A stretch of 64,000 nucleotides of DNA from an uncultured Candidatus Saccharibacteria bacterium (lineage in GTDB: Bacteria; Patescibacteriota; Minisyncoccia; Phycocordibacterales; Zambryskibacteraceae), in the NCBI GenBank assembly GCA_964582295.1, contig CAZOQP010000001.1, positions 84,754-148,753 on the forward strand. The letters are read 5' to 3'. Position 1 is the stretch's first letter, and every line of letters starts with the position of its first letter. This document shows, one piece after another, positions 22,476 through 54,190 of this stretch. The position numbers and the translations under genes are program-made. Under the pieces are notes generated by a model. The model had not been told where the DNA came from. It saw only the letters and a list, made by a program, of their open reading frames with translations, and made no database searches.

Positions 22476-22481
22476 TATCTG

Positions 22482-22552
22482 TGCGGGACGGGAGAATCGG
22501 ACTCCCACCTACAGTTTGGAAAACTGTCGTTCTACCACTAAACTAGTCCCGC
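22482..22552 (-). tRNA. tRNA-Gly (anticodon TCC)
   Basis: GCGGGAC acceptor stem, anticodon loop TTTCCAA, T-arm GGGAGTCCGATTCTCCC. Confidence 0.85.
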
Positions 22553-22574
22553 TTTATGAGCTTTTGAATTATAA

Positions 22575-22862
22575 CTACTCTGCCAATTTCTGCACCTCTT
22601 CAAAATTATCTTCCGGCCGTATGGCCGCATTTCGTTTGAAGCCGCATGAGATGCATTTGTGAATGATCGCAATAGCCACTCCCCCTTTCGTTTCCACCCC
22701 CACCGGTTTCATCATCCCTTCACATAGCTCTGCCCTGTCTCCGGGGTCAACATCCACATGCTTAGACCAGAGGCATTTCGGACAATGGTTGGTATACCCA
22801 TTCCCCTTCACCTCATTCCCGCAATTTTCGCAAATAAAATTTTCTTTGGTCCTTAAAAACAC
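22575..22862 (-). CDS. RNHCP-domain zinc-ribbon protein
   Basis: ORF 22575..22907 contains CENCG...YTNHCPKCLWSKH...CISCG. The track's TTG start lies inside tRNA-Gly(GCC), so the true start is probably the GTG at about 22862. Confidence 0.45.
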   Translation of the reverse strand: MFLRTKENFICENCGNEVKGNGYTNHCPKCLWSKHVDVDPGDRAELCEGMMKPVGVETKGGVAIAIIHKCISCGFKRNAAIRPEDNFEEVQKLAE

Positions 22863-22867
22863 TTTGT

Positions 22868-22938
22868 GCGGCCAGGGAGAATCGGACTCCCATCTCGTCC
22901 TTGGCAAGGACGCGTTCTACCACTAAACCATGGCCGCG
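22868..22938 (-). tRNA. tRNA-Gly (anticodon GCC)
   Basis: GCGGCCA acceptor stem, anticodon loop TTGCCAA, T-arm GGGAGTCCGATTCTCCC. Confidence 0.85.
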
Positions 22939-22987
22939 CATTAAGAACTCTAGCAAAAAAGCACTCCCCTCTCAATTATCAATTATG

Positions 22988-23058
22988 TCGGGCTGCTGGG
23001 AATCGAACCCAGTTCTTGCGAACCCGAATCGCATATACTACCGGTGTACTACAGCCCG
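22988..23058 (-). tRNA. tRNA-Pro (anticodon CGG)
   Basis: CGGGCTG acceptor stem, anticodon stem-loop TGCGA-TTCGGGT-TCGCA, T-arm CTGGGTTCGATTCCCAG. Confidence 0.8.
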
Positions 23059-23144
23059 TCTGTAGAACCTTCAGAATATATCACACAGGCCTTAAATAAA
23101 CATAAATTGAGAGTTTATCGGCTGTAACGTATGATGGCTCACAC

Positions 23145-23216
23145 GCACCCGTGGTGAAATGGATATCACAACGGTCTTCGGAACCGTTGTTGTGGGTTCG
23201 AATCCTGCCGGGTGCA
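23145..23216 (+). tRNA. tRNA-Arg (anticodon TCG)
   Basis: GCACCCG acceptor stem, anticodon stem-loop ACGGT-CTTCGGA-ACCGT, GGGTTCGAATCC T-loop region. Confidence 0.75.
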
Positions 23217-23237
23217 CACGCGAGAAAAACGCACTAG

Positions 23238-23308
23238 CGGGATGTAGTATAGCGGCAGTATTTACCCATGGGGTGGGTAAGGCCCGGGTTCAATTCCCGG
23301 CATCCCGA
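23238..23308 (+). tRNA. tRNA-Pro (anticodon GGG)
   Basis: CGGGATG acceptor stem, anticodon stem-loop TACCC-ATGGGGT-GGGTA, T-arm CCGGGTTCAATTCCCGG. Confidence 0.8.
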
Positions 23309-23358
23309 AATATCTAATTCCGTGCGCTCATGCCAAAACTTTGGCACTATGTAGGCAG

Positions 23359-23429
23359 CGGGACGTAGTATAGTGGCAGTATATATGCTTTGGGAGCATA
23401 GGGTCCGAGTTCGATTCTCGGCGTCCCGA
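23359..23429 (+). tRNA. tRNA-Pro (anticodon TGG)
   Basis: CGGGACG acceptor stem, anticodon stem-loop TATGC-TTTGGGA-GCATA, T-arm CCGAGTTCGATTCTCGG. Confidence 0.8.
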
Positions 23430-23660
23430 AATCAGAAAACAGAATGTGTCCGATTGGTGTCCTAAAGAAAAATGAACCTTTTCACTCCCCTTCCGGAAAA
23501 ACGGCTCTACAGCAAAGAAATTCCACAATATATTCTTTATTTGGGAATGGAATCTGTGGATAAACTTGGGGACATGTGTATTAGAAAGCTTGACTGTCCT
23601 ATAGCTTTATTGCAAAAAGTGGCTGTGGTTAGCCATTTTTGCTTTTGGGTCTCTCACATA

Positions 23661-23676
23661 TGTTTCACGTGAAACA
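23661..23676. promoter_or_regulatory. parS site 1 (TGTTTCACGTGAAACA, perfect, inside a 24-bp palindrome)
   Basis: 16/16 match to the ParB-binding parS consensus TGTTNCACGTGAAACA. Intergenic, upstream of the yraN-like gene. Confidence 0.7.
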
Positions 23677-23722
23677 TATGAGTAATGGTCATTACTAGCT
23701 ATGTAGACGCTCTACTCAACCA

Positions 23723-24106
23723 ATGCTTACACCTAAGAAAATCATAGGTAATAAGGGGGAGGAGCTCGTGGCAAAGTTTCTCGTGAAACAAGGATTCAAG
23801 ATTATGGAGAGAAACTACTTGAGACCATGGGGTGAGATAGATATTGTGGCTAAAAATAAGGGGATTGTGCACTTTATAGAGGTCAAAGCGCAGGAGGTTT
23901 CACATGAAACAGCCGGCCGTAAAGGCTGCTACAGGCCTGAAGATCATATGCACCCATGGAAAGTAAAGAGGTTTAAAAGGATCATAGAAACATGGATTAT
24001 GGACAAGGACTATGAAGGGGAATGGCAGTTAGCCGTAGCCATCGCCTACGTTTCTGAAGATCCAACTCTGCAGTCGATAGAAATGTTCTGGGATGTTGTA
24101 TTCTAG
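23723..24106 (+). CDS. yraN: YraN-family (UPF0102) endonuclease-like protein
   Basis: GNKGEELVAKFLVKQGFKIMERNYLRPWGEIDIVAKNKGIVHFIEVK matches the YraN family pattern. Confidence 0.65.
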   Translation: MLTPKKIIGNKGEELVAKFLVKQGFKIMERNYLRPWGEIDIVAKNKGIVHFIEVKAQEVSHETAGRKGCYRPEDHMHPWKVKRFKRIIETWIMDKDYEGEWQLAVAIAYVSEDPTLQSIEMFWDVVF

Positions 24107-24116
24107 CTAGAGAAAT

Positions 24117-25586
24117 ATGGCAACTTTTCCAATACCCGAACCTGTTTCACGTGTAACAAAAACCCTTACGGATAAGGGTTTTGAGGCATACCTTGTAGGC
24201 GGATGTGTGCGCGATTTATTCCGCGGAGAAACCCCAAAAGACTGGGACGTGGCCACCAATGCAGTGCCTGAAGAGATAGTTGCCATTTTCCCTAAGACTT
24301 TTTATGAAAATTCCTTTGGCACTGTAAGCGTAGTTCAGGAGGATGTAGTAGATGAGCGCCTGAAGGTGATAGAAGTCACCCCTTACCGCACTGAAGGGCC
24401 CTACACAGACAAAAGGCGGCCAGACACCGTATCTTTTGCAAAGCATTTAGAAGATGACCTGTCCCGAAGGGATTTCACTATAAACGCTTTAGCATATTCA
24501 GTGGAGAAAGATGAGCTTATAGACCTCTTTGAAGGGCGAAAAGACCTTATTTCAGGCCATATAAGGGCAGTGGGGAATGCAAAGGAACGCTTCAATGAAG
24601 ACGCCTTGAGAATACTCAGAGGAATACGTCTTCATGCAGAACTTGGGTTTGGTATAGATCCAGAAACCCTCACTGCAATGGGAGAAACTTCAGAACTTTT
24701 GTCTTTTATAGCTAAGGAGCGCATAAAGGACGAATTTAGCCGCATCATCAATTCTCCCAATCCGTCTTTGGGATTAATTTTGTCCGATAGGGTAGGGGCC
24801 CTGACATATATCATTCCAGAGCTTTTGGAAGCCAAAGATATAGCCCAGAACCAGGCACATTCCTTTGATGTTTTCACTCATCTTATGAAATCTTTGGATC
24901 ATGCCGCCCATAAGAAGTATGAGTTTCACGTGAGACTTTCTGCCCTCCTTCACGATATAGGCAAGCCGGCTTCCCGTAGGTGGAGTGATGAGAAAGGGGA
25001 CTGGACTTTCTATGGCCACGAGGTGGTAGGGGCAAGAATGGCTAAAAATATACTTGAAAGACTGAAGTTTTCACGTGAAACAATCACAAAAGTTGTTACC
25101 TTGGTGCGCTGGCATATGTTTTTCTCTGATACGGAGCAGATAACCCTTTCGGCCGTCAGGAGGCTTGTATCTAACGTTGGCAAGGATTTGGTGTGGGACC
25201 TCATTGCAGTGCGCCAGTGCGACAGAATAGGCACAGGGAGGCCCAAGGAAAGCCCTTATCGCCTGCGCAAGTTCCAGTCAATGATAGAGGAAGTGATGAG
25301 AGACCCTGTTTCCGTAGGTATGCTTGCAGTGGATGGAAAAGACCTTATGGAAACGTTTGAGGAGAAGCCGGGCCCTCGCATCGGCTTTATACTTCACGCC
25401 CTTTTGAATGATGTTCTGGACGACCCTTCTAAAAATACAAAGGAAACCCTTATTAAACAGGCAGAAAAATATCACACCCTTGATGATGAGACCCTGAAAA
25501 AACTAGGGGATGAGGGGAAGATGGCTAAAAGCAAGGAGGAGATGGAGGAATTGGCAAAAATACGTTCTAAATACAAGGTTTCTTAA
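24117..25586 (+). CDS. cca: CCA-adding tRNA nucleotidyltransferase / poly(A) polymerase family with HD domain
   Basis: YLVGGCVRDLFRGETPKDWDVATNA nucleotidyltransferase head, followed by an HD region. Confidence 0.85.
   Translation: MATFPIPEPVSRVTKTLTDKGFEAYLVGGCVRDLFRGETPKDWDVATNAVPEEIVAIFPKTFYENSFGTVSVVQEDVVDERLKVIEVTPYRTEGPYTDKRRPDTVSFAKHLEDDLSRRDFTINALAYSVEKDELIDLFEGRKDLISGHIRAVGNAKERFNEDALRILRGIRLHAELGFGIDPETLTAMGETSELLSFIAKERIKDEFSRIINSPNPSLGLILSDRVGALTYIIPELLEAKDIAQNQAHSFDVFTHLMKSLDHAAHKKYEFHVRLSALLHDIGKPASRRWSDEKGDWTFYGHEVVGARMAKNILERLKFSRETITKVVTLVRWHMFFSDTEQITLSAVRRLVSNVGKDLVWDLIAVRQCDRIGTGRPKESPYRLRKFQSMIEEVMRDPVSVGMLAVDGKDLMETFEEKPGPRIGFILHALLNDVLDDPSKNTKETLIKQAEKYHTLDDETLKKLGDEGKMAKSKEEMEELAKIRSKYKVS
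24143..24158. promoter_or_regulatory. parS site 2 (TGTTTCACGTGTAACA, 15/16)
   Basis: Located inside the cca coding sequence. Confidence 0.55.
24922..24937. promoter_or_regulatory. parS-like site 3 (AGTTTCACGTGAGACT, 13/16)
   Basis: Located inside the cca coding sequence. Confidence 0.4.
25067..25082. promoter_or_regulatory. parS site 4 (GTTTTCACGTGAAACA, 14/16)
   Basis: Located inside the cca coding sequence. Confidence 0.5.
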
Positions 25587-25614
25587 AATCCCAGGATAAA
25601 CCTGGGATTTTGGG
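25586..25614 (+). terminator. rho-independent terminator after cca
   Basis: AAAATCCCAGG-ATAAA-CCTGGGATTTT hairpin. Confidence 0.6.
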
Positions 25615-25978
25615 ATTGGATGGGAGATTAAGTTTCACATTGTTTCTACCGTTTCACACTAAACATACATAAACAAAACACCCGCCGCAGTTGCGACAGG
25701 TGTGGTGGAAGGGCGATCGAGATAGGTGCAGGTGCACTCTCTGCGACCCAAAAATTTTAGATGTTTGACGGTGCTGTGAGTTTAAGCGCCCGACATATCA
25801 AGATCGTCTTCCGGCGCGATCGGGCCATAAGGATCTACTGCGTTGGCGATCCTTGAGGGATTGGGTCTCAATTTCTGCCAAGCTTCTAGCCAACATGATA
25901 TACCTAAAGGACAAAATGTCTATGTGGATAACTCAAGGATAAAAGACATTTTGTCCTTTAAATCTAAAAGACGGGCGA

Positions 25979-26755
25979 CTATATTTTTACCTCAAGCTCT
26001 ATAGGACAGTGATCTGAACCGTATATGTTGCTCCACATAAAGCTGTTCTTCACTTTAGGCATTAGCTCTTTAGTAACCACAAAGTAGTCTATTCTCCAGC
26101 CAACATTGCGGTCTCTGGAAAAGCTTTTTTGGTCCCAGTATGTATAAGCCTGCTTTTCATCCGGATGAAGGTGGCGAAAAGTGTCTATGTATCCATGGGA
26201 AAGGAATTTACTCATCCAGGCACGCTCAATAGGGAGAAATCCCACGTGATTGGCATTCTCCTTGGGGCGAGCGATGTCTATTTCGGTATGGGCCACGTTC
26301 ACGTCGCCGCAAACTATGATGTTCTTGTGCTTTTTCCGGAGTTTTTCAGTGAATTTCAAAAATGCTTCGTAAAATTCCAGTTTGTATTTGAGGCGCTCCG
26401 CTGGGCCGCCTCCATTCGGGAAGTAGGTATTTATAAGTACGAAATCCTCATAAATGGCAGTGAGCATCCGACCTTCTTTGTCTAATTTTTCAATACCCAA
26501 GCCGTAAATTACTTCTTTGGGTCTTTCTTTGCTGTATATAGCTACTCCGCTATAGCCCTTTTTCTCTTTAGGCCAGTCAAAAAAAGTGAAGTAACCCTCG
26601 GGCGATGCAAGTTCCGGTGGTATCTGATCAACGCTCGCCTTGGTTTCCTGGAGGCAAATGATGTCCGGAGATTGTTTGAAGAACCACGCGAAGTCGTCGT
26701 TTTTGTGGCTTGCACGTATACCATTCACATTCCAGGAGATGATGCGCATAGGCAT
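25979..26755 (-). CDS. xthA: exodeoxyribonuclease III
   Basis: MRIISWNVNGIRA N-terminus and the ExoIII/EEP family signature. Confidence 0.9.
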   Translation of the reverse strand: MPMRIISWNVNGIRASHKNDDFAWFFKQSPDIICLQETKASVDQIPPELASPEGYFTFFDWPKEKKGYSGVAIYSKERPKEVIYGLGIEKLDKEGRMLTAIYEDFVLINTYFPNGGGPAERLKYKLEFYEAFLKFTEKLRKKHKNIIVCGDVNVAHTEIDIARPKENANHVGFLPIERAWMSKFLSHGYIDTFRHLHPDEKQAYTYWDQKSFSRDRNVGWRIDYFVVTKELMPKVKNSFMWSNIYGSDHCPIELEVKI

Positions 26756-26848: not shown

Positions 26849-29047
26849 TTAATTGGAAGATGGATTGAGGGACTGGAGCAGAACTTTTAGAGCCTGGTAG
26901 ACACCAGCGATACCTGCTGAAAGGGATGGTCTTGAAGAAACTTCCAGAAGTTGGTCTTCTTCTTCCGAACCAGAGGATGGGTCTTCTGTTGGAGTAGTGC
27001 CTTGGGGGGAAACATTTACCGCCACACTATCTGAAACTGCTGTGCCGTTTGTACCCGAGCATGAGACTGCGAATACTCTGGTGCTGTAGAGGGAGGGTGA
27101 TGTACCGGATTGCGAAACTGTTGGTCCTGAATTGGATACGAAGGTGAGAGGATTGCTGCAGTAGGTAACATTGCTTGCCGTCCAAGACACGCTTACCATG
27201 CCACCGTACGCAACCGTAGCGGTGTTATCCGAACCATTTATTTTGAGGTCAATTGTAGGTCCGGAAGTTGTCGTGGTTTGCGAAGCAACATTCGCAACAA
27301 CACTTCTCGATGCGGATTGTCCGGCTGAATTCACACAGGTAAGAGTGATAGTGGTCGTCTGGGTAAGGGGACCGAACTGGAAACCGAATGCACTTAGATC
27401 TACTGTGTCGTACAGGTGAGAGGCGTTGAGGGAACACGAAGTGGCATTCGACGAGCTCCAGTTGAGAGGCGTGTAGCCATTGTATGGAGTGACGCTTGAT
27501 GACCCGAGAGTGAAGTAGCTAATGGAAGGAGCGGGAACATTTGTGGTTGGCGGCGAAGTAGTTGGAGGGGGGGGTGTTGTTGAAGATATAACGGCCACCG
27601 TTACAGATTTACTTGCCGATACCCCAACACTGTTGAAGCACGTCACCGTGTAGGTGGTCGTCTGGGACGGGTAGACATGGCTGATACCTGTGGTTTTTCC
27701 TGATTCCAAGCCAAAATTACTTGAGGAACAATAGCTCGCATTACTTGAATAAAAAGACAATGCAGATGACTGTCCGAGTGTAACTGTCGTTGGACTAGCT
27801 GTAAGGGTGACGAATGGCACAAGGAAAGTAGGGGTGCGAGTTGGCTCGGTAGCAAGAGAGACACGCACACTGTCTGACACTGTCTCTACAAGGAAACCGC
27901 GCGAATCAAACTTTTTGCAATCTATTGTGTAGGTGGTGTAGCCGTTCGGGTTCCACGATACATTTCCTACCGGATAGAAGCTTGAGCCCGCCGCATAGGC
28001 CGCAGTGTTGTTGTATTGTGCCGTCACCCCAGTTGCGAAAGCACCACTGATGACAGGATGTCCGCTCAAAGTACAGGCGCTTATGCCAGAGGATGCGGAC
28101 CACGCGAGATTAAGTGCTTGTCCTGAAGATAAAGTGACTGGCCCGTCCAAACCATTAGCTTTTATGTCTGCAGAAGATGCTGTGTTAGGAGTAGCTGGTG
28201 GAATTATAGTGGTTGGAGGGTTTGCTGGGGGAGTAGCGGGAGGAGTGGCTGGGGGAGTAGCGGGAGGAGTGGCTGGGGGAGTCGCGGGGATTACGGTTTC
28301 GCCCGGATGTAGATTCTGTCTGTCGAGGAAACTTTCAGAAACCCAGCCGTCCGCACCACCTACGAAGTCTATTCTCCACCATATATGACCGTCTCTTGTT
28401 ACCGGGCCTTGTATAACAGTGCCCCATCTGCCTGCCGGCTGCACACCAACTCGCGCAAAGCCAAGGCCAGAAGCGCTGCGCACATTCACCTGGTCATTGG
28501 TCTTCACAATGTCGCCAATCAGGAATTTAGCGGCGGTGCTAGTAACAGCCGGATTAGCGGGCGCTGTGCCGCTTGAAGTGTTGGCACACGCGAGCTCTTT
28601 CATTTTGGCGAGAGTGGCGGGGCCGGCTGTACCTCTTGCCTCCGTCCCAGATGACAAAGATACATTGACGCTGTAGGCGGTCTGGAAGTTACTTACGGCA
28701 GCATTCGTGTAAATACCGTAATATCCTGTCATGTTATCGGCAGTGAGAAGCCCTAGCGAATTCAGGAAACGCTGGAGATTAGTGACGCTTGCCCCACGAG
28801 AACCAATGGACAGGGTTTGCGTAGGGATGAGTTCGCACATAGATGAACCACCCACTGTAGGCCCCACCAAACCTTGCGCATCTGCAGCGGGAGCGGCCGC
28901 ACCAAACAGCATTACCGAAAGAACAAGGATGAGAGAGAATCGGTTGATAAGTTTCATAATAATTTTTGGCTGCTTATGGCCTCTGGCCTTATTTGTATTT
29001 TTATATTGTACTATCAAGCTCTCACCCAAGATTATTCCTGTCCCCAC
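26849..29047 (-). CDS. large secreted cell-surface protein with peptidoglycan-binding domain, SH3b-like domain, PATPP repeat linker and Ig-like repeats
   Basis: Signal peptide. PG_binding_1-like region (ASVTNLQRFLNSLGLL...GYYGIYTNAAVSNFQ). SH3b-like region (VNVRSASGLGF...WWRIDF). (PATPP)x5. Thr/Ser-rich beta domains. Confidence 0.55.
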   Translation of the reverse strand: MGTGIILGESLIVQYKNTNKARGHKQPKIIMKLINRFSLILVLSVMLFGAAAPAADAQGLVGPTVGGSSMCELIPTQTLSIGSRGASVTNLQRFLNSLGLLTADNMTGYYGIYTNAAVSNFQTAYSVNVSLSSGTEARGTAGPATLAKMKELACANTSSGTAPANPAVTSTAAKFLIGDIVKTNDQVNVRSASGLGFARVGVQPAGRWGTVIQGPVTRDGHIWWRIDFVGGADGWVSESFLDRQNLHPGETVIPATPPATPPATPPATPPATPPANPPTTIIPPATPNTASSADIKANGLDGPVTLSSGQALNLAWSASSGISACTLSGHPVISGAFATGVTAQYNNTAAYAAGSSFYPVGNVSWNPNGYTTYTIDCKKFDSRGFLVETVSDSVRVSLATEPTRTPTFLVPFVTLTASPTTVTLGQSSALSFYSSNASYCSSSNFGLESGKTTGISHVYPSQTTTYTVTCFNSVGVSASKSVTVAVISSTTPPPPTTSPPTTNVPAPSISYFTLGSSSVTPYNGYTPLNWSSSNATSCSLNASHLYDTVDLSAFGFQFGPLTQTTTITLTCVNSAGQSASRSVVANVASQTTTTSGPTIDLKINGSDNTATVAYGGMVSVSWTASNVTYCSNPLTFVSNSGPTVSQSGTSPSLYSTRVFAVSCSGTNGTAVSDSVAVNVSPQGTTPTEDPSSGSEEEDQLLEVSSRPSLSAGIAGVYQALKVLLQSLNPSSN
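28197..28290. repeat. in-frame tandem 24-nt repeat encoding the (PATPP)n linker
   Basis: GGGAGGAGTGGCTGGGGGAGTAGC repeated about 3.5 times within the CDS 26849..29047. Confidence 0.7.
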
Positions 29048-39175: not shown

Positions 39176-39991
39176 ATGAAGAACCTCCTTTCAGACAAGA
39201 TAACGGTGGCACTTTCCGCATCAATACTCATTTTGAGCGGAAGCACCGGCTATGCGATAGCACAAAGCCCCCGTTCCGACACCTCTCCTTTGGGGATCCG
39301 GACCGAAAATGAAAAGCAGGACATTGGAAGCCTTATAAGCGCAGAAAACGTGGAAAACTCGGTAAGCGATAACTCATCGCTTTTCACTCCAAGCACTTTC
39401 ACGGCACGTTTCGGCCAAAACGCTTTTTCCCGATTTGTACAAGCATCTCAAAGAGAGGAGGAGGTAAATGCTTCCGACATCATGGAGATCTCTAACAAGG
39501 TGGCTTCAGATCTGGCAGCAAACAGCAATATTAAGTTTACAGAATACTCCTTGGTAGACCTCTCCATAATTTCTGCTCCTACCACAAGCGACTGGCAGAA
39601 ATTCATTTCTGACATAAACACAATACGCAGCAAATATGCTTCGATATTCCGCTCTTCCACAAATTTAGGAGGTCTGGCGACACTTGGCCCAAATAATATC
39701 CCCTCAATACTCAAGGCCGGAGATCTATATTCTCAAATGGCCGAGGAGCTTTTGACAACCCCGGTGCCCGCGCCGGCCTTACAAAGTTTTTTAAAGTTGG
39801 TAAATGCTTATTCAAAAGCGGCTGCAGGACTACCCGCGTTTAAATATCTATCTGATGATCCAGTAAGAGTGATCCCCGGCCTAAGTTTGTATTCGGAAAG
39901 CCAAGACGATGAGTCCGCAGCGCTTAGTGAAATCCAGGTTCTTCTTATAAGCAATGGTATAATTTTTTCTGGGACATACCTCGCTCCCTAA
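39176..39991 (+). CDS. secreted hypothetical protein (first gene of T4SS-like operon)
   Basis: Signal peptide MKNLLSDKITVALSASILILSGSTGYAIAQ. No known motifs. Confidence 0.4.
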   Translation: MKNLLSDKITVALSASILILSGSTGYAIAQSPRSDTSPLGIRTENEKQDIGSLISAENVENSVSDNSSLFTPSTFTARFGQNAFSRFVQASQREEEVNASDIMEISNKVASDLAANSNIKFTEYSLVDLSIISAPTTSDWQKFISDINTIRSKYASIFRSSTNLGGLATLGPNNIPSILKAGDLYSQMAEELLTTPVPAPALQSFLKLVNAYSKAAAGLPAFKYLSDDPVRVIPGLSLYSESQDDESAALSEIQVLLISNGIIFSGTYLAP

Positions 39992-39994
39992 AGC

Positions 39995-41812
39995 ATGAAA
40001 AAGAAAATTTTACTTTTTATACTCTTATTCTCTATATTGGGAAGTCTTTTAATTCCATCAACTACCCAGGCCCAGGGAATAAATATCCCACCACTTACCG
40101 GACTTAGCGAAACTATTCCTCCTGTACCCGTAGGAGATGCTGCCATAAGGAAAAAAGAGGTGGGCTTTACTATTTTTGGAATAGACACGGGTATTTCATG
40201 GGACAGCATAGTGATTATGCTTGGCAGGGCGATGCTAGACAACATATTTGACAGTATGACCGACTGGGTGAACCGCGGATTTGAAGGCAATCCGACTTTC
40301 GCAACAGATCTTAATGATTATTTGTCTAAGGTTGGGGATGTTGTGATAGGAGACGCCTTGAATGAAATAACCAACGGCTTCGCCTGTGAGCCTTTTCGCC
40401 TGGAGATAAGAGCTGCCATAGAAAGAGACTTCGGGGCCGGGGGGCAAGGCAAAATTTTCAAAAACTCCTGCACTTTGAGCGAGATAGAAGCGAACGTGGA
40501 TAATTTTTTGGATGGAAGTTTTGTTGATGGCGGGTGGCCGGCATGGTTCAGGATAACCCAAGTTGATGAGAACAATCCTTACGGCTCATATTTAGAAGCA
40601 AGAGGCGCCATCACTGCAAGTATTGAAGGAGCGCGAAGTGTGGAGCTTGCTAAATTAAGCTGGAGCCAGGGATTCATAGATACACGTGAATGCCTGGAAT
40701 ATCAGACGACCGTAATGATGACAGCGGCAGGTCCTGTTCCTGTTCCTACACAGATATGTAATAAATGGGGGCCGGTAAAAACCCCCGGTGCAGTTATTGC
40801 AAACCAGGTAAATAAACAATTCGGAGCATCAACAGATCAGTTAATAACTGCAGACGAATTGGACGAATTTTTCGCGGCTGTCGTAAACCAGCTCCAGAAC
40901 ATGGTGTTCAGTAGAGATGGAATATTCCGTACGGGAGGAGCACCAAGAATTTCAGGAGCGGCAGGAGATTACAATAGACAGCCGTTCGATCTAGGAACAG
41001 GAGCTTGCACAGTCGAACCCCCCGCACCGATCGTGGTAGGTAGTGACACCACATGGAGAATAACAACTGCCGTAAACGGATCGAATCCTCAATATGTATG
41101 GAGTGGTACGGATATGAGTTCCACCACCAACGCATCCTCGCTAAAGGTTTCTTACTCAATACCCGGCGACAAAAATATGTCGGTTACCCTTTCATATGAC
41201 GAGATCGATCAATCTCAAAGTCCTGATCCAACAACTGGTCAGTATCCGACAACACGAAAAACCCAGAATGTTTCTTGCCCCACCATTCTCGTAACCCCAC
41301 CACCTCTTGCTATTTCATGCATATTAGCTCCACTGGTTATAAACTCTCCTTCCTCTACAAATCATCGTATCTCCCCTACAGATCAAAATGACAGCGTGTG
41401 GGATGGCCCGAATGATCCGGATAATATGTATGCGAGGTACAGGAACGGCACCCTTACGGAAACTGATAAAAAATATCTGGTGGTCTGGCAGGTCACTATC
41501 TCGGGCGGCTCAGGCAAACTTGACCGTATTACTGTCGAAAAGGATAGCGGTATCAATATTGGTGTGAACAGCCAGCTCCCTCCATATCTTCCGAGCCTTA
41601 ATTACTCCCCGGCAGCCGGTATCCCTGTTCAAGGCAACCCCCCATCTATCACCTTAAGACTGCCGGCCTGGTATGAAGAGAGTAATATATTTGCAAGACA
41701 GAACTTAAATGTTGATAAAACCTTAAGAATAAGCGTTCTTGATTCAGATCAGAGCATTGCGAACGGCTTTGTGAACCAATCCTGCCAATCCGTTAAAGTA
41801 ATAGGCCCATAG
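39995..41812 (+). CDS. secreted hypothetical protein, 605 aa
   Basis: Signal peptide MKKKILLFILLFSILGSLLIPSTTQAQG. Gap of 4 nt from the upstream gene. Confidence 0.4.
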   Translation: MKKKILLFILLFSILGSLLIPSTTQAQGINIPPLTGLSETIPPVPVGDAAIRKKEVGFTIFGIDTGISWDSIVIMLGRAMLDNIFDSMTDWVNRGFEGNPTFATDLNDYLSKVGDVVIGDALNEITNGFACEPFRLEIRAAIERDFGAGGQGKIFKNSCTLSEIEANVDNFLDGSFVDGGWPAWFRITQVDENNPYGSYLEARGAITASIEGARSVELAKLSWSQGFIDTRECLEYQTTVMMTAAGPVPVPTQICNKWGPVKTPGAVIANQVNKQFGASTDQLITADELDEFFAAVVNQLQNMVFSRDGIFRTGGAPRISGAAGDYNRQPFDLGTGACTVEPPAPIVVGSDTTWRITTAVNGSNPQYVWSGTDMSSTTNASSLKVSYSIPGDKNMSVTLSYDEIDQSQSPDPTTGQYPTTRKTQNVSCPTILVTPPPLAISCILAPLVINSPSSTNHRISPTDQNDSVWDGPNDPDNMYARYRNGTLTETDKKYLVVWQVTISGGSGKLDRITVEKDSGINIGVNSQLPPYLPSLNYSPAAGIPVQGNPPSITLRLPAWYEESNIFARQNLNVDKTLRISVLDSDQSIANGFVNQSCQSVKVIGP

Positions 41813-41818
41813 GACAAT

Positions 41819-44149
41819 TTGTGTGGACGGCGCGTCCAATTTTTGTCCTTTATCGGATACTATAGGAGTATGAGTTCTTCATGGAAAATACTAATTTCCT
41901 GCTTTTTGGTGTTTTCAATGGCAACAATAGTTTTCCTTCCTTTACCCGCCCACGCTCTATCTCTATTCGGTTTTGCTGCGGGGGCTATCGAGAGTGCGGT
42001 CGCGACACTTGCAAACATGGTTTTGAAGTTCTTTGCTTTCCTGTTGGGAATATGCGCTGTACTACTAGATTACTCCTTGAATCTTACGGTAGTACAGCTA
42101 AGTGAAAACCTCAAAAGTCTTACTGCTATAAACGAAACATGGTCCACCATAAGAGACTTAATAAACCTTTCATTCATATTCATTCTCCTCTTCGCAGCAA
42201 TACGCACAATTCTTGGGCTGGAATCTCCTGTAAAAGTAATAAAAAATATTGTACTCGCTGCGCTCTTCATAAATTTTTCCATGTTCTTCACGCGCGTGAT
42301 GATAGACGCCTCAAACTCTGTAGCCCTGTTCTTTTATGAACGTATAACTTCGGCAATTGTTGACACGAGTGGTTTGGGATCCGCAGCAAATATGTTATTG
42401 AGCGAGCGAGGGAAAACTTTAAGCGCCCTGTATGCCAATCCGCTTAGACTGGGAACTTTATACAAAGCGGCAGACGGAACCGCATCCCAGGTCGTAAATT
42501 CCACAAACATATACACTATCGGACTTATGGGCTCTATGATGCTCGCTTTAGTGGCTTTCGTATTTTTAACCATAGCCATAATGTTTGTTATCCGCTATGC
42601 CGCACTTATTGTTCTTCTGATATTTTCGCCGCTTGGTTTCATAAGCAAGGATCTGCCGATGATAGGGGAGTACAACCAGCAATGGTGGGGTATGCTCAAA
42701 TCACAACTCTTGTTTCCGCCCGTGTTCATGATAATGACCTGGATAACGATCAAGGTCATAAACTCGCCAGGCATTCTGGGGATATGCAAGGACCCGGGAG
42801 ATTGTAATTTTAGAGGCGCTTTGGCAGCAAGCGGGGATATTCCTGATGTGAGTGGAGTGGGCCTCATGATAAATTTTGCGGTAATAATGGCGCTCATCGT
42901 GATGTCTCTTCTTATATCAATTCAGACCGCATCCAAGGGAGCGGAGGCATTTTCAGGTCTCTACAAAAAGGCCAGCAAATGGGCAGGAGGTGCCATGTTT
43001 GGCGGCGCATCTCTTATCGGAAGACAGACGTTTGGTAGGGGATCGGAGATGCTGAAAAATACCAATATGTACACGAAGTGGGAGGCGAAATCTAAGGACA
43101 GTATGATGGCCCGTCTTGCTCTGAACACGGTAGACCAGACCAGGACCGGTTCCATGGACACGCGTGGTTCAAAGTTTGGAAAAGCATTTGCCGGGATGAC
43201 GGGCCTTGATGCGGGAGAAGCTGTGGGACAAGGTGGATTTGAAGCAGATAGAAAGGCCTACAAAGAATATTTTGCAAGACCTGGCTCAGAAGCTAAAAGG
43301 GAGAGGGACGAAAGAGCGGCTAAAGCTACGGCCGTGCTCGACATTGAGGCAGCTCAGGATCTTGATCCGGCTCAAATTGATGCAATAAGAGCTCTCGTAG
43401 GACCTCGAACACCCGACCAGCAGGAAATGGTAGATAAGATGGACAAAATGGAAAAAGCCCTTGCACGCATGACGGATAAGGAGGTGGAGGCAATAGTATC
43501 AAGCAACAAGAAACTTCTTGATAAAGAAGCATTTGCTCAAAAATTAAGCGTTCAACAACTGGAAACTATAAATAAGAGCGATAAATTCTCGGATGAAGAA
43601 AAGAGGGTCTTCAACGACAACCGCTTCAAGCAAATATCCTCAATTATTGAGGCCGCCCAAAGGACTGGAACACCAATTAGTTCTACTGATGCCAAAAAGA
43701 TTGCTGGACTTACAGATAAAGAACTTGAATACGTACCTTCAGACATCATCAACAATAAAAACTTCGTCGGAGCGTTGCGATCTTCACATATGGACTACGT
43801 AAAGAAGAGCACCAAATTCACATCTTCACAGAAAGATGCGATTAAGAATTCTCGCCAGGACGCTCTATTAGGTAGAGTCCAAACTACTCCGTCAGAAATA
43901 GCTAAATTAGATCCAAAAGACGTGGCCAGTCTATTTGACCGGGGAGTACTTACGGATCCTATATATCTAGAACATCTTAATCCTAAAAAGTTAAAGAGTA
44001 TTGGTAAGGAAATAGACGATGAGAGGAAAATAGATCAGATAAAAGCCGCAATTACTGCAGCACCTGGAGGCCCGGCAGGAGGCCCTCCAACAGGAATAGA
44101 TAGATTACAGACATGGCAAGGAAGCCCGGACTATCAAAATAATTTCTAA
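41819..44149 (+). CDS. VirB6/TrbL-like (TcpH/ConG-type) polytopic membrane protein with large C-terminal hydrophilic coiled-coil domain
   Basis: About 8 predicted TM helices in the first ~400 aa. A ~370-aa charged C-terminal region ends in a Pro/Gly-rich tail. This architecture is typical of Gram-positive T4SS VirB6 homologs. Confidence 0.5.
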   Translation: MCGRRVQFLSFIGYYRSMSSSWKILISCFLVFSMATIVFLPLPAHALSLFGFAAGAIESAVATLANMVLKFFAFLLGICAVLLDYSLNLTVVQLSENLKSLTAINETWSTIRDLINLSFIFILLFAAIRTILGLESPVKVIKNIVLAALFINFSMFFTRVMIDASNSVALFFYERITSAIVDTSGLGSAANMLLSERGKTLSALYANPLRLGTLYKAADGTASQVVNSTNIYTIGLMGSMMLALVAFVFLTIAIMFVIRYAALIVLLIFSPLGFISKDLPMIGEYNQQWWGMLKSQLLFPPVFMIMTWITIKVINSPGILGICKDPGDCNFRGALAASGDIPDVSGVGLMINFAVIMALIVMSLLISIQTASKGAEAFSGLYKKASKWAGGAMFGGASLIGRQTFGRGSEMLKNTNMYTKWEAKSKDSMMARLALNTVDQTRTGSMDTRGSKFGKAFAGMTGLDAGEAVGQGGFEADRKAYKEYFARPGSEAKRERDERAAKATAVLDIEAAQDLDPAQIDAIRALVGPRTPDQQEMVDKMDKMEKALARMTDKEVEAIVSSNKKLLDKEAFAQKLSVQQLETINKSDKFSDEEKRVFNDNRFKQISSIIEAAQRTGTPISSTDAKKIAGLTDKELEYVPSDIINNKNFVGALRSSHMDYVKKSTKFTSSQKDAIKNSRQDALLGRVQTTPSEIAKLDPKDVASLFDRGVLTDPIYLEHLNPKKLKSIGKEIDDERKIDQIKAAITAAPGGPAGGPPTGIDRLQTWQGSPDYQNNF

Positions 44150-44157
44150 AATAATCC

Positions 44158-44787
44158 ATGATAATCTCCAAAGAAAAAAGACGAGCTGCATACCAACAAC
44201 TTCCTGAAAAAATCAGAGAATATATTTCATCTGGCGGCAGTATAGAAAAAACAGATACCCTAGCGCAAAAATTTTCCTTAACCCCAAATCAGGACATTGT
44301 CCTTGATGACGAGATCACTCTTGTTCTTATGGGACTTGAAACGAAAGACGATATGCTTGCATCACTTCAGGAAAAGACGGGGATTGGAAAGAACAAGTGC
44401 CTGGAAATAATAATGGAAGCTGATAAATTTATTTTTCAGCAATTCAAACAGTGGATACCAAAACAAAATCAGGGGGCAATTAAACTAAATGCCCTAGAAC
44501 AATTGCCTCAACAACTGAAAACAATAAAGCTCCCAGATGGAGCAGCGGGTTCTTTGCCGGACCACGAAGAGATAATTAAAAATCCTATCGTAATGCCATC
44601 CAATCCTGTAATTGCAGCTGCACCAGTACCCCAAAAACCTGAAGCATCTAAGAATCTGCCTCCGATAGATAATCTTTCATGGGAAGAGAGGAAAAAGCGT
44701 GCTGAAGAAGCCCTGAAAAACATAGCGCCTACGGAAAACAAAAAGTACCCAGGCGGAGCAGATCCCTACAGGGAGCCAATCTCGTAA
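44158..44787 (+). CDS. hypothetical soluble protein in T4SS-like operon
   Basis: ORF only, tightly packed in the operon. Confidence 0.4.
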   Translation: MIISKEKRRAAYQQLPEKIREYISSGGSIEKTDTLAQKFSLTPNQDIVLDDEITLVLMGLETKDDMLASLQEKTGIGKNKCLEIIMEADKFIFQQFKQWIPKQNQGAIKLNALEQLPQQLKTIKLPDGAAGSLPDHEEIIKNPIVMPSNPVIAAAPVPQKPEASKNLPPIDNLSWEERKKRAEEALKNIAPTENKKYPGGADPYREPIS

Positions 44788-44802
44788 GCAGAGCTTACGA
44801 GA

Positions 44803-45261
44803 TTGGCGGGTTATAATATCTTTATGCGTTTTCAAGTACCACAGTTCATTGAAGTTGAAGACAAGATATTCGGACCCTTCACGTTCAAACAATTCGTTTA
44901 TCTTGCAGGTGGGGCAGGGATGATAGCTATTGCCTTCACGTTTCTTCCTAAGTTCTTGGCTTTTCTTGTAGCCCTTCCTATTGCAGGACTTGCGGCAGCC
45001 CTTACTTTTTACAAAGTGAATAACCGTCCTTTCATTTACACACTGGAGGCATACCTCAACTATCTGCTCACTAAAAAACTTTTCGTATGGAAAACCAGGC
45101 AAAGGACGGCGCAAGCCCATCCTTCGGCCGACACAAATTCTGAAAGACCGCAGGTGCAAGTGCCTAAAATTTCAGGGAGCAGACTTCGCGACCTTACATG
45201 GGATCTGAGCGTTAAAGGACGGACCGACATAAATCAAACAAAAGACACGGATACCGTTTAA
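44803..45261 (+). CDS. VirB3-like / TcpE-like small 2-TM protein
   Basis: FGPFTFKQFVYLAGGAGMIAIAFTFLPKFLAFLVALPIAGLAAALTFY. Two TM helices, directly upstream of the VirB4 genes as in Gram-positive T4SS. Confidence 0.4.
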   Translation: MAGYNIFMRFQVPQFIEVEDKIFGPFTFKQFVYLAGGAGMIAIAFTFLPKFLAFLVALPIAGLAAALTFYKVNNRPFIYTLEAYLNYLLTKKLFVWKTRQRTAQAHPSADTNSERPQVQVPKISGSRLRDLTWDLSVKGRTDINQTKDTDTV

Positions 45262-45291
45262 TACTATAATTACGGCTGGAGAATATTCACA

Positions 45292-45924
45292 ATGCCAATA
45301 TCCGCACAATCTACACAAGACTTCGTACCTATAAAAGACGTGCGCGACGGAGTCGTCATTTTAAAAGACGGAGGATTGAGAAGTATCCTGATGACATCAT
45401 CTGTCAATTTTTCCCTGAAGTCGGAGGACGAGAAGACCGCCATCATTTATCAGTTCCAGGATTTTCTGAATTCCCTTGATTTCTCAGTGCAAATACTGAT
45501 GCAGTCCCGCAAGCACGACATCAGACCTTACTTGGCTCTCCTTGAAGGCCGCAAAAAAGAGCAGATGAACGATCTTTTGAAGATCCAAATACAGGAATAC
45601 ATAGAGTTCATAAAAACTTTTACAGAACGCCAGAACATAATGACGAAAAGTTTTTTCGTGGTAGTGCCCTATACTCCGAATGCCCTTAATAACTCCAATT
45701 TCATGCAGAAAGTCATGCCTGGAAAAGGAACACCCACCCAAAAGAAAGAAGGGAAATTTGAAGAGGACGTCGTTCAGCTTGATCAGCGCCTCTCTGTTGT
45801 AATGCAGGGGCTTTCGCGCTGCGGCTTGCGAGCAGTTCGCCTTGGCACAGAAGAGGTAATCGAGCTTTTCTACAAAGTTTTCAACCCCGGGGAAACAGAG
45901 AAGCCGATCCAGATGCAATCATAA
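45292..45924 (+). CDS. VirB4-family N-terminal domain protein (separate ORF)
   Basis: FVPIKDVRDGVVILKDGGLRSILMTSSVNFSLKSEDEKTAIIYQFQDFLNSL resembles the N-terminal region of Gram-positive VirB4/TrsE/ConE ATPases. Ends with TAA 2 nt before the next ATG, in a different frame. Confidence 0.45.
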   Translation: MPISAQSTQDFVPIKDVRDGVVILKDGGLRSILMTSSVNFSLKSEDEKTAIIYQFQDFLNSLDFSVQILMQSRKHDIRPYLALLEGRKKEQMNDLLKIQIQEYIEFIKTFTERQNIMTKSFFVVVPYTPNALNNSNFMQKVMPGKGTPTQKKEGKFEEDVVQLDQRLSVVMQGLSRCGLRAVRLGTEEVIELFYKVFNPGETEKPIQMQS

Positions 45925-45926
45925 AT

Positions 45927-47765
45927 ATGTCTTTCCTAGATATTTTCAAATCAAAAAATAAAGAGGGGAATGCACCAGCGCCCGGCAATATTCTTCCTAA
46001 AGAAGTGTACGACTCAAGTGTGCTTGACCTTAAAGACATCATCGCACCAAGCGCTCTTAAGATAGGCCAGAAGCATCTTGATCTCGGAGACAAAGTGGTT
46101 AGAAGTTTTTTCGTAATTTCTTATCCGCGCTTTCTTGCAGAAGGATGGTTCGCCCCCATCATCAATCTGGACAAGGTTTTTGACGTTTCCATATTCGTAC
46201 ACCCAGCTGAAACCTCAACCGTATTAAGGCAATTCCAAAAGAAAGTGGCTGAAGTCCAAAGCCAGATACACGAAAGGGAGGAGAAGGGCCTGGTTCGCGA
46301 TCCTATGCTTGATGTGGCTTACCAGGACCTTGAAAATCTCCGCGATCAGCTTCAGCAGGCGCAGGAACGCCTCTTTGATGTCGGCCTTTACATCTCTATT
46401 TACGCGGACAATGAATCAGAGCTAGACAAAATAGAATCCGAGATGAAATCCATCCTTGAAGCGAAGATGGTGTATATTAAGCCCGCACTTTTCCAGCAGA
46501 ATGACGGCTTCGCTTCCTCTCTTCCTATCTGCGAAGATGCACTCAAAGTAAACCAGAAGCTCAATTCTTCGCCTTTATCATCTCTTTTCCCGTTCATTTC
46601 CTTTGACCTCACATCAGACCGCGGCGTACTTTACGGAATAAACCGCCACAATTCATCCCTCGTCTTGTTTGATCGCTTCTCTCTTGAAAACTACAACTCC
46701 ATCACCTTCGCAAAATCCGGTGCCGGAAAATCTTATGCGACCAAGCTTGAAATATTGCGCTCCCTTATGTTCGAGACCGATGTCATTGTCATTGATCCGG
46801 AGCGTGAATACGAATACCTGGCAGAAGCCGTGGGTGGGCGCTACTTCAACATTTCCCTCAATTCGGAGCACCACATAAACCCCTTTGAATTGCCGCTTCC
46901 CGGGCCTGATGAATCGGCTGCAAGCGTTTTGCGTTCAAACATTGTGAATCTGGTGGGGCTTTTCCGACTAATGCTCGGAGGACTTACCCCAGAAGAGGAT
47001 GCTCTTATAGACAGAGCATTAAGCGAAACATATGCCCTCAAAGACATCACTCCCGATTCCGATTTCAGAAATATAGAGCCACCACTTCTTTCAGACTTTG
47101 AGCTGGTGCTTTCAGGGCTTGAGGGAGGAGAATCTCTTGCACAGCGCCTTTCCAAATACACCAAAGGAACTTGGGCTGGCTTCATCAACCGCCCTTCTAA
47201 TGTGGATATCAACAAAAAATTCGTGGTCTTTTCTCTCCGCGATATGGAAGATGAACTGAAGCCTATTGCCATGTACATCGTGACCCACTTCATATGGAGC
47301 GCCGTCAGAAAGGAGTTGAAGAAACGCCTGCTTGTCATAGACGAGGCATGGTGGATGATGAAATCAGAAGACACAGCATCTTTCCTTTTGAACATGGCAA
47401 AACGTGGCAGAAAATATTTCCTGGGGCTTGCAACCATCACCCAAGACGTTGACGACTTCCTGAAATCGCCCTACGGAACGCCTATTATCACAAACTCGTC
47501 CATTCAAATACTTTTAAAACAATCCCCGACGGCAATCGACCGTCTTCAGGAGGTCTTCAATCTGACAGATGAAGAAAAATATCTCCTTCTTGAATCAGGG
47601 GTAGGAGAGGGCATTTTCTTCGCAGGTCTCAAGCATGTCGCCATAAAAATAATCGCCTCCTACACAGAAGACCAGATAATCACTTCCGACCCATCACAGC
47701 TCCTCGCTATCGCAAAATCAAAACAGGAAGCTAAAAATACAAATGAAGGAACGGCGATTCTCTAA
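45927..47765 (+). CDS. virB4: type IV secretion VirB4-family ATPase
   Basis: YPRFLAEGW N-domain motif, Walker A AKSGAGKSY, Walker B LLVIDEAWWMM (the VirB4 DEAW motif), and the C-terminal ATPase core. Confidence 0.8.
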   Translation: MSFLDIFKSKNKEGNAPAPGNILPKEVYDSSVLDLKDIIAPSALKIGQKHLDLGDKVVRSFFVISYPRFLAEGWFAPIINLDKVFDVSIFVHPAETSTVLRQFQKKVAEVQSQIHEREEKGLVRDPMLDVAYQDLENLRDQLQQAQERLFDVGLYISIYADNESELDKIESEMKSILEAKMVYIKPALFQQNDGFASSLPICEDALKVNQKLNSSPLSSLFPFISFDLTSDRGVLYGINRHNSSLVLFDRFSLENYNSITFAKSGAGKSYATKLEILRSLMFETDVIVIDPEREYEYLAEAVGGRYFNISLNSEHHINPFELPLPGPDESAASVLRSNIVNLVGLFRLMLGGLTPEEDALIDRALSETYALKDITPDSDFRNIEPPLLSDFELVLSGLEGGESLAQRLSKYTKGTWAGFINRPSNVDINKKFVVFSLRDMEDELKPIAMYIVTHFIWSAVRKELKKRLLVIDEAWWMMKSEDTASFLLNMAKRGRKYFLGLATITQDVDDFLKSPYGTPIITNSSIQILLKQSPTAIDRLQEVFNLTDEEKYLLLESGVGEGIFFAGLKHVAIKIIASYTEDQIITSDPSQLLAIAKSKQEAKNTNEGTAIL

Positions 47766-52351: not shown

Positions 52352-52485
52352 TAGACGGAGAGGCTCTTTCTGCCCTTTCTCCTCCGGCGAAGGAGGGTTT
52401 TTCGGCCTCCGGGGGTTGCCTTGCGGGTCAAAAACCCGTGGCTTCGCTTTCTTTTTTTCTTTTTAGGCTGGTATGTCTGCGACAT
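52351..52485 (-). CDS. rpmH: 50S ribosomal protein L34
   Basis: Not in the ORF track (44 aa). Manual translation gives [44 protein letters not shown]. Its stop overlaps the rnpA start (TAATG). Confidence 0.85.
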
Positions 52486-52613
52486 GTTGTCTTGATTTAA
52501 GAGTTATGTTGTTATTTTCTTATGCACATTTCGTCCACACATTATTACCACAATTAACGGATATCTTCAACTGTACGTGGCGTCTCCCACCTATATACTT
52601 AACGTCCAAGATT

Positions 52614-53954: not shown

Positions 53955-54190
53955 TAAAAATGTGTGTATAGGGTGTGGAAAGGTGGGGGTACTCACGGTG
54001 TGGAAATTCTTGATAAAAAAAGTAAGGTGGGGAAGGGGGTTGTAAGATTTATTCTTCTCAACCGTCTTACACTCCCTAATCACCACCAAGACAGATTGAG
54101 TTAGATGATAAAAACGGCTTAAAATATAGGTATTACAGAATTATCCACACATCCACACCCCTAAGAGTAGTAATTATCTTCTTATATAAA
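53955..54190. other. candidate oriC (dnaA-dnaN spacer with DnaA boxes and AT-rich unwinding region)
   Basis: Perfect TTATCCACA at 54141..54149. Box-like TGTGGAAAG/TGTGGAAAT at about 53973 and 54000. AT-rich tract just before dnaN. Confidence 0.5.

Follow-up and report, generated by a model that had tools for sequence, protein, structure and literature searches.

The DNA analysed here is a 64-kb stretch (the window) from a Paceibacteria bacterium, and its gene content is of the Parcubacteria/Paceibacteria type. It carries the adjacent genes yraN and cca, and a cluster of 16-bp palindromes resembling parS, the chromosomal binding site of the partition protein ParB, is laid over these two genes and the intergenic DNA beside them. 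A reading made from the letters alone (the sequence-only reading) had taken this cluster for an origin-proximal, ParB-binding centromere. That interpretation is supported by the identity of the motif, by conservation of the cluster among related genomes, and by selection acting at the DNA level. The genes dnaA and dnaN are indeed located to the right of the cluster, and dnaA is 28.4 kb from cca, in agreement with the distance of about 28 kb given previously.

parS-like palindromes at the yraN-cca locus

The window was scanned for the canonical parS 16-mer TGTTTCACGTGAAACA with up to three mismatches. Six matches were found, whereas 0.31 were expected from 100 shuffles, none of which attained six. 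All six are confined to about 1.4 kb (23661-25082): one is intergenic, two are inside yraN, and three are inside cca (Table 1). The four sites listed in the sequence-only reading were reproduced in both position and match count (16/16, 15/16, 13/16, and 14/16), and the three near-copies that it had assigned to cca all lie inside that open reading frame. The total, however, is six to seven rather than four, the two sites in yraN (23775 and 23896) having been overlooked. The perfect site, parS-1, forms the centre of a 24-bp perfect palindrome, as had been claimed; the repeat finder gave this palindrome as CATATGTTTCACGTGAAACATATG at 23657-23680 (pair I16).

The repeat finder, which was run independently of the scan, returned the same family of sites (D1) with a seventh member at 25651-25665, where parS-7 is located. 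This position had been described as a half-site, but it is actually a 12/16 site; the other half-site proposed past cca, at 25631-25638, is a true one and stands alone. The half-site GTTTCAC/GTGAAAC occurs 14 times in the window, nine of these being within 23662-25651. When a weight matrix derived from the sites of relatives was applied, parS-1 to parS-7 took the top seven scores of the entire window, with parS-7 in seventh place. The hexamer CACGTG occurs 12 times in the window, and the full motif is present in the cluster only. Spacings between successive sites are irregular (114, 121, 247, 779, 145, and 583 bp), and the in-gene sites occupy two reading frames.

Table 1. Positions of the genes, parS sites, DnaA boxes, and 9-mer copies in the window
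Feature	Position	Strand	Sequence, match, or domain	Context
yraN (UPF0102)	23723-24106	+	Pfam PF02021, E=4e-16	hosts two parS sites
cca (CCA-adding tRNA nucleotidyltransferase)	24117-25586	+	Pfam PolyA_pol, PolyA_pol_RNAbd, HD, tRNA_NucTran2_2	hosts three parS sites
parS-1	23661-23676		16/16	intergenic, 47 bp 5' of yraN; top weight-matrix score in the window
parS-2	23775-23790		AGTTTCTCGTGAAACA, 14/16	inside yraN, codons K-F-L-V-K-Q
parS-3	23896-23911		GGTTTCACATGAAACA, 14/16	inside yraN, codons E-V-S-H-E-T
parS-4	24143-24158		15/16	inside cca, codons P-V-S-R-V-T, residues 9-14
parS-5	24922-24937		13/16, weakest of the six	inside cca, codons E-F-H-V-R-L, residues 269-274
parS-6	25067-25082		14/16	inside cca, codons K-F-S-R-E-T, residues 317-322
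parS-7	25650-25665		CGTTTCACACTAAACA, weak 12/16	cca-exoIII intergenic
Tandem DnaA-box pair	23555-23583	-	TAATACACA-N11-TTATCCACA on the minus strand	
Perfect DnaA box	25923-25931		TGTGGATAA	within 25905-25960, convergent cca-exoIII spacer
9-mer, exact	25905, 25952		TAAAGGACA	
9-mer, one mismatch	23595, 24700, 24724, 25940, 26000		variants of TAAAGGACA	
Perfect DnaA box	54141-54149	+		dnaA-dnaN intergenic; canonical oriC candidate

For comparison, cca and its surroundings, to a maximum of 10 kb on either side, were taken from 80 species-representative GTDB genomes (1.23 Mb in total). The three closest relatives, L082, L083, and L084 (67-82% identity in the CCA enzyme), and 80 metagenomic dnaA loci (550 kb) were sampled in addition. 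The cca homologues, at 55-82% identity, come from metagenome-assembled genomes labelled Zambryski-, Adler-, Taylor-, Kaiser-, Yonath-, and Nomurabacteria or "Paceibacterota". The 80 cca loci contain 118 sites with up to two mismatches, against about 0.3 expected. Counted from the cca start, 117/118 of these fall in the zone from -2.5 to +2.7 kb (372 kb in total), and the other one is in the remaining 857 kb. With up to three mismatches, 276 sites are inside this zone versus 13 outside, and one or more such sites, typically two to five, are present in 74 of the 80 loci. No site with two or fewer mismatches was found in the 80 dnaA loci. The motif marks one locus, and this locus is conserved throughout the class Paceibacteria, in the gene order TF-RsmE-ClpP-RNaseY-HU-tRNAs-RNHCP-YraN-cca-ExoIII-XerC-NYN. 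A dispersed repeat or a restriction-related motif is excluded by the virtual absence of copies from about 1.4 Mb of other sequence of the relatives. An even scatter of the motif, which the sequence-only reading had itself named as evidence to the contrary, is ruled out in the window and in these loci.

Individual sites recur to different extents. The intergenic place of parS-1 is occupied by perfect or one-mismatch sites in relatives. The place of parS-2 in homologous yraN genes carries a parS-like site in eight genomes including the window, L083 and L084 being among the carriers, and the stretch "xVSxET" of parS-3 does so in about 36 yraN genes. In cca, parS-4 recurs in 12 genomes and parS-6 in 19, the window included in both counts, and the offset of parS-5 (+805) is retained in the three closest relatives. 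Sites with two or three mismatches are also found in relatives at the offset of parS-7 (+1470 to +1580). Each of L082-L084 has three to six parS sites, at the cca locus only; some positions are shared with the window (+26, +805, +950, the yraN sites, and the site 5' of yraN), and others have been gained or lost. Among the pooled sites, T4, C6, G11, A13, and A14 are about 98% conserved, and mismatches gather at positions 1, 2, 8/9, 12, and 16.

This pattern bears on the idea that the sites resemble parS by convergence and serve as operators for an unrelated dimeric transcription factor with yraN, cca, and the nearby tRNA genes under its control. The perfect site would be suitably placed for such a role, because it lies between a terminator-like hairpin and the start of yraN. 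However, most of the sites are buried in coding DNA, as far as 950 bp into cca and past its stop codon. Their positions turn over among lineages while the cluster persists, and arrays of three to nine sites across 2 kb are not normal for operators. Furthermore, the 16-mer is exactly equal to the pan-bacterial parS consensus. Regulation of this kind therefore seems very improbable as the explanation of the cluster.

Selection on the nucleotide sequence of cca and yraN

The peptide motifs VS[RH]VT, KFSRET, and [FL]HVRL, which are encoded at in-gene sites, recur in the alignment of the CCA family. This raises the question of whether the in-gene copies are by-products of conserved peptides and the cluster is a coincidence. 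A codon alignment of 82 cca genes was used here, with codon backgrounds taken from the same genes. In this alignment, parS-like sites recur at about eight positions, corresponding to residues 9, 76, 197, 269, 288, 304, 317, and 412/413 of the window's enzyme, and lineages differ in which subset of them they use.

At residue 317, the 19 sequences that read FSRET use TTT in 17/19 (background 0.59), TCA in 18/19 (background 0.22, p=1.6e-11), CGT in 14/19 (background 0.19), and GAA in 18/19 (background 0.57). The remaining cca sequences have dissimilar residues at this place, such as KFPKKT and KYPTKI. At residue 9, the 21 sequences that read VSxVT use GTT in 21/21, TCA in 18/21, GTA in 21/21, and ACA in 17/21, where the backgrounds are 0.22-0.28. 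Residues 197 and 304 are sites of other lineages; the parS bearers read HVSRER and VGSRVT there, in place of the family norms KISKER and VGARMT. At residue 269, the window's clade has EFHVRL, while other members have SLEIRL, DFDIRL, and so on, and FHV is the derived state. For the codons that spell parS in FSRET, VSxVT, HVSRER, and VGSRVT, p ranges from 1e-13 to 4e-3 per codon, values that overstate independence because the sequences are related. The same recurrence of parS was seen in yraN at the window's two positions.

Synonymous sites are saturated at 55-65% protein identity, and the kept parS spelling therefore reflects selection on DNA. On this codon evidence, what keeps the in-gene copies in place is selection on the nucleotides beyond the needs of the protein, strong enough to change amino acids in both the CCA enzyme and YraN. 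The by-product explanation is refuted by the codon tests, in which codon choice is fixed to the parS spelling far above background. In addition, many family members have wholly different residues at these columns, perfect copies exist in intergenic DNA, and there are essentially no sites in 1.4 Mb of other related sequence. We give it practically no chance of being correct.

DnaA boxes, a conserved 9-mer, and two candidate origin loci

Three perfect DnaA boxes (TTATCCACA) are present in the window. Those at 23555 and 25923 flank the parS cluster, and that at 54141 is between dnaA and dnaN. The first belongs to a tandem pair, which is 78 bp from parS-1 edge to edge (113 bp start to start from the perfect box). 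A tandem pair with a spacing of 20-21 bp was found in 55 of the 66 relatives having enough upstream sequence. In the relatives (L002-L084) it is about 200-2100 bp 5' of cca, is essentially unique within each +/-10 kb locus, and is found in the context ..TGTCYTT-TATACACA-N11-TTATCCACAG. parS lies on one constant side of the pair, with 57 sites on this side versus none on the opposite side and a median distance of 149 bp. As a side observation, relatives have tRNA genes between this pair and cca.

In the window and its nearest relatives, the module containing the tandem pair is inverted, along with yraN where this gene is present. In most relatives yraN adjoins cca, usually on the opposite strand (minus, divergent from cca), whereas the module of yraN, parS, and DnaA boxes is on the plus strand in the window, L083, and L084; L082 lacks yraN altogether. 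The strand of the module thus points to a local inversion in the window's clade.

The box downstream of cca is enclosed by a 17-nt perfect inverted repeat, TAAAGGACAAAATGTCT / AGACATTTTGTCCTTTA (pair I2). A DnaA box with at most one mismatch is found within 700 bp past the cca stop codon in 70 of 79 loci, with copies of the 9-mer TAAAGGACA on its flanks. In total, the 83 related cca loci contain 108 perfect DnaA boxes, compared with 9.8 expected, and nearly all of these are just upstream or downstream of cca. The 9-mer (TAAAGGACA / TGTCCTTTA) is even more abundant, with 275 exact copies in the 83 cca loci versus 9.8 expected; at dnaA loci there is no such enrichment (12 versus 4.2 expected). 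Two direct copies and one inverted copy surround the downstream box, and in the upstream pair the 9-mer overlaps the first "box". Furthermore, it is overprinted on cca at residues ~130-146, in two reading frames. A literature search for the 9-mer gave no description, with primer-type matches only. An Xer/dif site was considered for it and rejected, the spacing of its arms varying from 0 to 13 bp. It should also be mentioned that the whole yraN-cca segment lies between the arms of a 12-nt perfect inverted repeat, ACTGTCCTATAG / CTATAGGACAGT (23593-23604 and 25999-26010, 2394 nt apart), and that both arms hold a variant of the 9-mer.

The sequence-only reading placed the cluster near the origin. 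This holds with respect to dnaA-dnaN, but conserved DnaA boxes flank the cluster itself, which gives two candidate origin loci. The dnaA-dnaN spacer (53955-54190) contains TTATCCACAcatCCACAcccc, then TAAGAGTAGTAATTATC, and then an AT-rich run up to the start of dnaN. Here a box is followed by C-rich DNA, TAG/TAA triplets, and AT-rich DNA, an order that looks like the canonical layout for origin unwinding, and no layout of box, GC-rich stretch, and trio was found beside the boxes at cca. In relatives, the first 250 bp past dnaA contain 205 boxes (at most one mismatch) in 77 loci, or about 2.7 per locus. Each genome has two or three strong boxes at the cca locus, i.e., the tandem pair and one downstream, while dnaA-dnaN has its own, denser cluster. 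The Patescibacteria literature equates the origin with dnaA (PMC12102498).

GC skew gave a different indication in the window. The cumulative skew has its minimum at 15-23 kb and goes upward from 23 kb; whole-sequence skew was rejected for placing the origin, since it tracks gene orientation. When skew is taken at third codon positions and controlled for strand (GC3 skew), the shift falls at about 23.5 kb, and none is seen at dnaA (52.5 kb). An origin at dnaA is hard to square with such a shift, although in relatives the same test is confounded by gene-specific codon usage: when they were pooled, cca and dnaA loci gave similar shifts. GC3 skew was accordingly rejected as a discriminator of the origin.

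On these grounds the palindromes might instead be a module of a replication-control region, either oriC or an auxiliary DnaA locus, in which modulation between ParB and DnaA is primary and segregation is secondary. Such a region overlaps with a centromere and does not exclude it. The tandem pair at 60-200 bp from parS, always on the same side, the conserved box past cca, the excess of perfect boxes flanking this gene, and the skew shift in the window all point in this direction. There is also a precedent in Caulobacter, where DnaA reportedly binds at the centromere (Mera et al. 2014, PNAS, cited in PMC6667618); the DnaA boxes beside parS parallel this, with binding here being a prediction only. 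The denser box cluster and the unwinding-type layout, however, are found at dnaA-dnaN, and the skew shift appears at both loci in relatives. We regard a primary role in replication control as unlikely.

A comparison can be made with the bipartite oriC of B. subtilis (Bacillus subtilis) and Helicobacter (oriC1-dnaA-oriC2), in which clusters of DnaA boxes flank the gene. Here too, conserved boxes are found on both sides of one gene, cca, and the spacer is AT-rich. The differences are that just 2+1 strong boxes are present, that no clear unwinding element was seen, and that a separate cluster exists at dnaA-dnaN.

A broader proposal is that the Paceibacteria centromere is a hard-wired composite region around cca, being either the true origin or a site where DnaA, ParB, and a further factor couple replication to segregation. 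Its parts could be the parS array, the one-sided tandem DnaA-box pair, the box enclosed by an inverted repeat past cca, and the many copies of TAAAGGACA. In such a region parS and the 9-mer would be partly overprinted on cca, and parS also on yraN; 25-40 genes would separate it from dnaA, and parB would be a long way off. We put this forward as a tentative possibility, somewhat doubtful at present.

The genes around the locus are as follows. To the left are those for ClpP, RNase Y, and HU and a cluster of six tRNA genes, followed by yraN and cca. The tRNA genes (22481-23429; Gly x2, Pro x3, and Arg) form two divergent groups and adjoin both the parS cluster and the gene of the CCA enzyme. In the Rfam search, tRNAs alone were matched, and nothing was found at 23.4-26.05 kb with E<=1; the intergenic regions there are therefore not known RNA genes. 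To the right of cca are the genes for exonuclease III (minus strand), a peptidoglycan-binding protein, and an XerC-like recombinase, then a cluster resembling a type IV secretion system (T4SS), and farther on rnpA and yidC (minus strand), dnaA (52473-53954), and dnaN. The peptidoglycan-binding protein (26849-29047, minus strand; 732 aa) has peptidoglycan-binding and SH3-like domains and an (A/P)TPP repeat tract, ATPPATPPATPP..., and is not kept at this position in most relatives. The T4SS-like block (39176-47765) between cca and dnaA includes a PrgI family protein (44803-45261), a VirB4/TraG-type ATPase (45927-47765), and several unannotated open reading frames. Genes for a T4SS near dnaA have already been published for Patescibacteria (PMC12102498), and the block in the window agrees with this.

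ParB and the centromere interpretation

All 58 open reading frames of at least 80 aa in the window were searched against Pfam, and six-frame tblastn was carried out with Spo0J and Soj of B. subtilis, Spo0J of Thermus thermophilus, and ParB of Caulobacter crescentus as queries. Neither search found ParA or ParB in the window, as the sequence-only reading had also noted. When the window and 164 related loci (1.9 Mb) were searched by tblastn, there was no hit to ParA or ParB at E<=0.1 (full set) or E<=10 (first set).

Of 17 published Parcubacteria genomes, 13 are listed with a ParB-family gene (COG1475) and 14 with smc (Nelson & Stegen 2015, PMC4508563, Supplementary Table 1), while COG1192 (ParA/Soj) is absent from the core list, which holds only genes found in at least 13/17 genomes (PMC4508563). 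According to the same table, cca and dnaA are separated by 23-43 genes. The separation is 25 genes in C7867-004, where the COG1475 gene is 375 genes off by locus-tag numbering, and 36 genes in RAAC4, where the COG1475 gene is 166 genes from cca; the Parcubacteria COG1475 gene adjoins miaA and dprA (PMC4508563). C7867-004 is also in our sample (locus L051), and a parS-like site is present at its cca. Both ParB and SMC thus appear to be present in the lineage, with a parB gene that, in contrast to most model bacteria, is not linked to parS. ParA may be dispensable or absent.

Chromosomal parS sites, such as the Spo0J sites of B. subtilis, reportedly have the consensus TGTTNCACGTGAAACA (Lin & Grossman 1998; Livny et al. 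2007). The sites at the yraN-cca locus are 16-bp inverted repeats matching this consensus, present in few and clustered copies, proximal to the origin, and under selection at the DNA level. As in the Firmicute type represented by B. subtilis, the palindrome is the same, degenerate copies with one to three mismatches are found beside a perfect one, some sites are in coding sequence, and the location is origin-proximal. In B. subtilis, however, the host gene is parB (spo0J) and the sites are spread over hundreds of kb, whereas here the hosts are yraN and cca, six to seven sites are contained in 2 kb, and there is no parAB operon within 10 kb. In C. crescentus, Myxococcus xanthus, and Corynebacterium glutamicum, the number of parS sites ranges from several to about 24, grouped in a stretch of a few to tens of kb. 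These species likewise use a multi-site array as one centromere, a few to tens of kb from oriC, but their clusters adjoin parAB, in contrast to the reported distances of 166 and 375 genes for the ParB-family gene mentioned above.

Streptococcus pneumoniae has a ParB-parS-SMC system that lacks ParA. The Parcubacteria core list similarly includes the ParB family and smc and does not include COG1192, which fits a role centred on SMC loading, although the list covers genes in at least 13/17 genomes only and ParA may thus be present in some. Two other types of site were rejected. The Noc-binding site, with the consensus ATTTCCCGGGAAAT, is centred on CCCGGG and has A as the second base of its half-site, while the sites here are centred on CACGTG and have G as the second base. 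A plasmid centromere of tandem iterons (e.g., F sopC) does not agree with the irregular spacings, and no tandem array was found in 22-27 kb.

Identity to the pan-bacterial parS, a single conserved cluster, selection on the DNA, and nearness to dnaA together give the locus the look of a ParB-loading centromere. We therefore consider it probable, at about 0.8, that the locus is a chromosomal, ParB-binding parS centromere of this Paceibacteria bacterium. Chromosomal parS centromeres are a known class. This one differs in its density, in its hosts yraN and cca with overprinting, in its separation from parB, and in its pairing with DnaA boxes and the 9-mer.

Several points weigh against this assignment. 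Searches extending 10 kb from cca and 4 kb from dnaA in the relatives found neither parA nor parB, and membership in COG1475 in the 2015 table is no proof of a canonical, parS-specific ParB. At parS-5 (24922) and parS-7 (25650), which have three to four mismatches, binding may be weak or nil. In this organism itself, the distribution of the motif is that seen within the 64-kb window only. Finally, given the DnaA boxes and the 9-mer, the palindromes may belong to a larger control region that serves mainly for something other than segregation.

If the locus is a centromere, its binder would be ParB, with segregation and SMC loading as downstream events. Canonical ParB dimers, encoded elsewhere in the genome, would nucleate at the strong parS sites. 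Upon binding of CTP, ParB would close as a clamp and slide onto the adjacent DNA to build up a partition complex, following the clamp and SMC-loading mechanism of model systems (review: PMC7333895). The partition complex would then mark the origin-proximal region for segregation and load SMC, and ParA might or might not participate.

Literature searches on Patescibacteria, the candidate phyla radiation (CPR), and Parcubacteria found no published description of parS or of centromere organisation. As members of the CPR are mostly uncultured, there are few ways to approach their cell cycle, and cis-elements offer one of these. A centromere locus fixed across a class provides a landmark by which metagenome-assembled genomes can be oriented and checked, and its sites provide short, defined DNA substrates for in vitro tests of the lineage's ParB, DnaA, and SMC. 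The locus also seems to be a clear natural case in which a protein-binding DNA motif constrains, and even alters, the sequence of an essential enzyme. In addition, it gives reason to revisit the assumption that the origin is at dnaA in these genomes, and a composite region around cca, if true, would raise the interest of the locus further.

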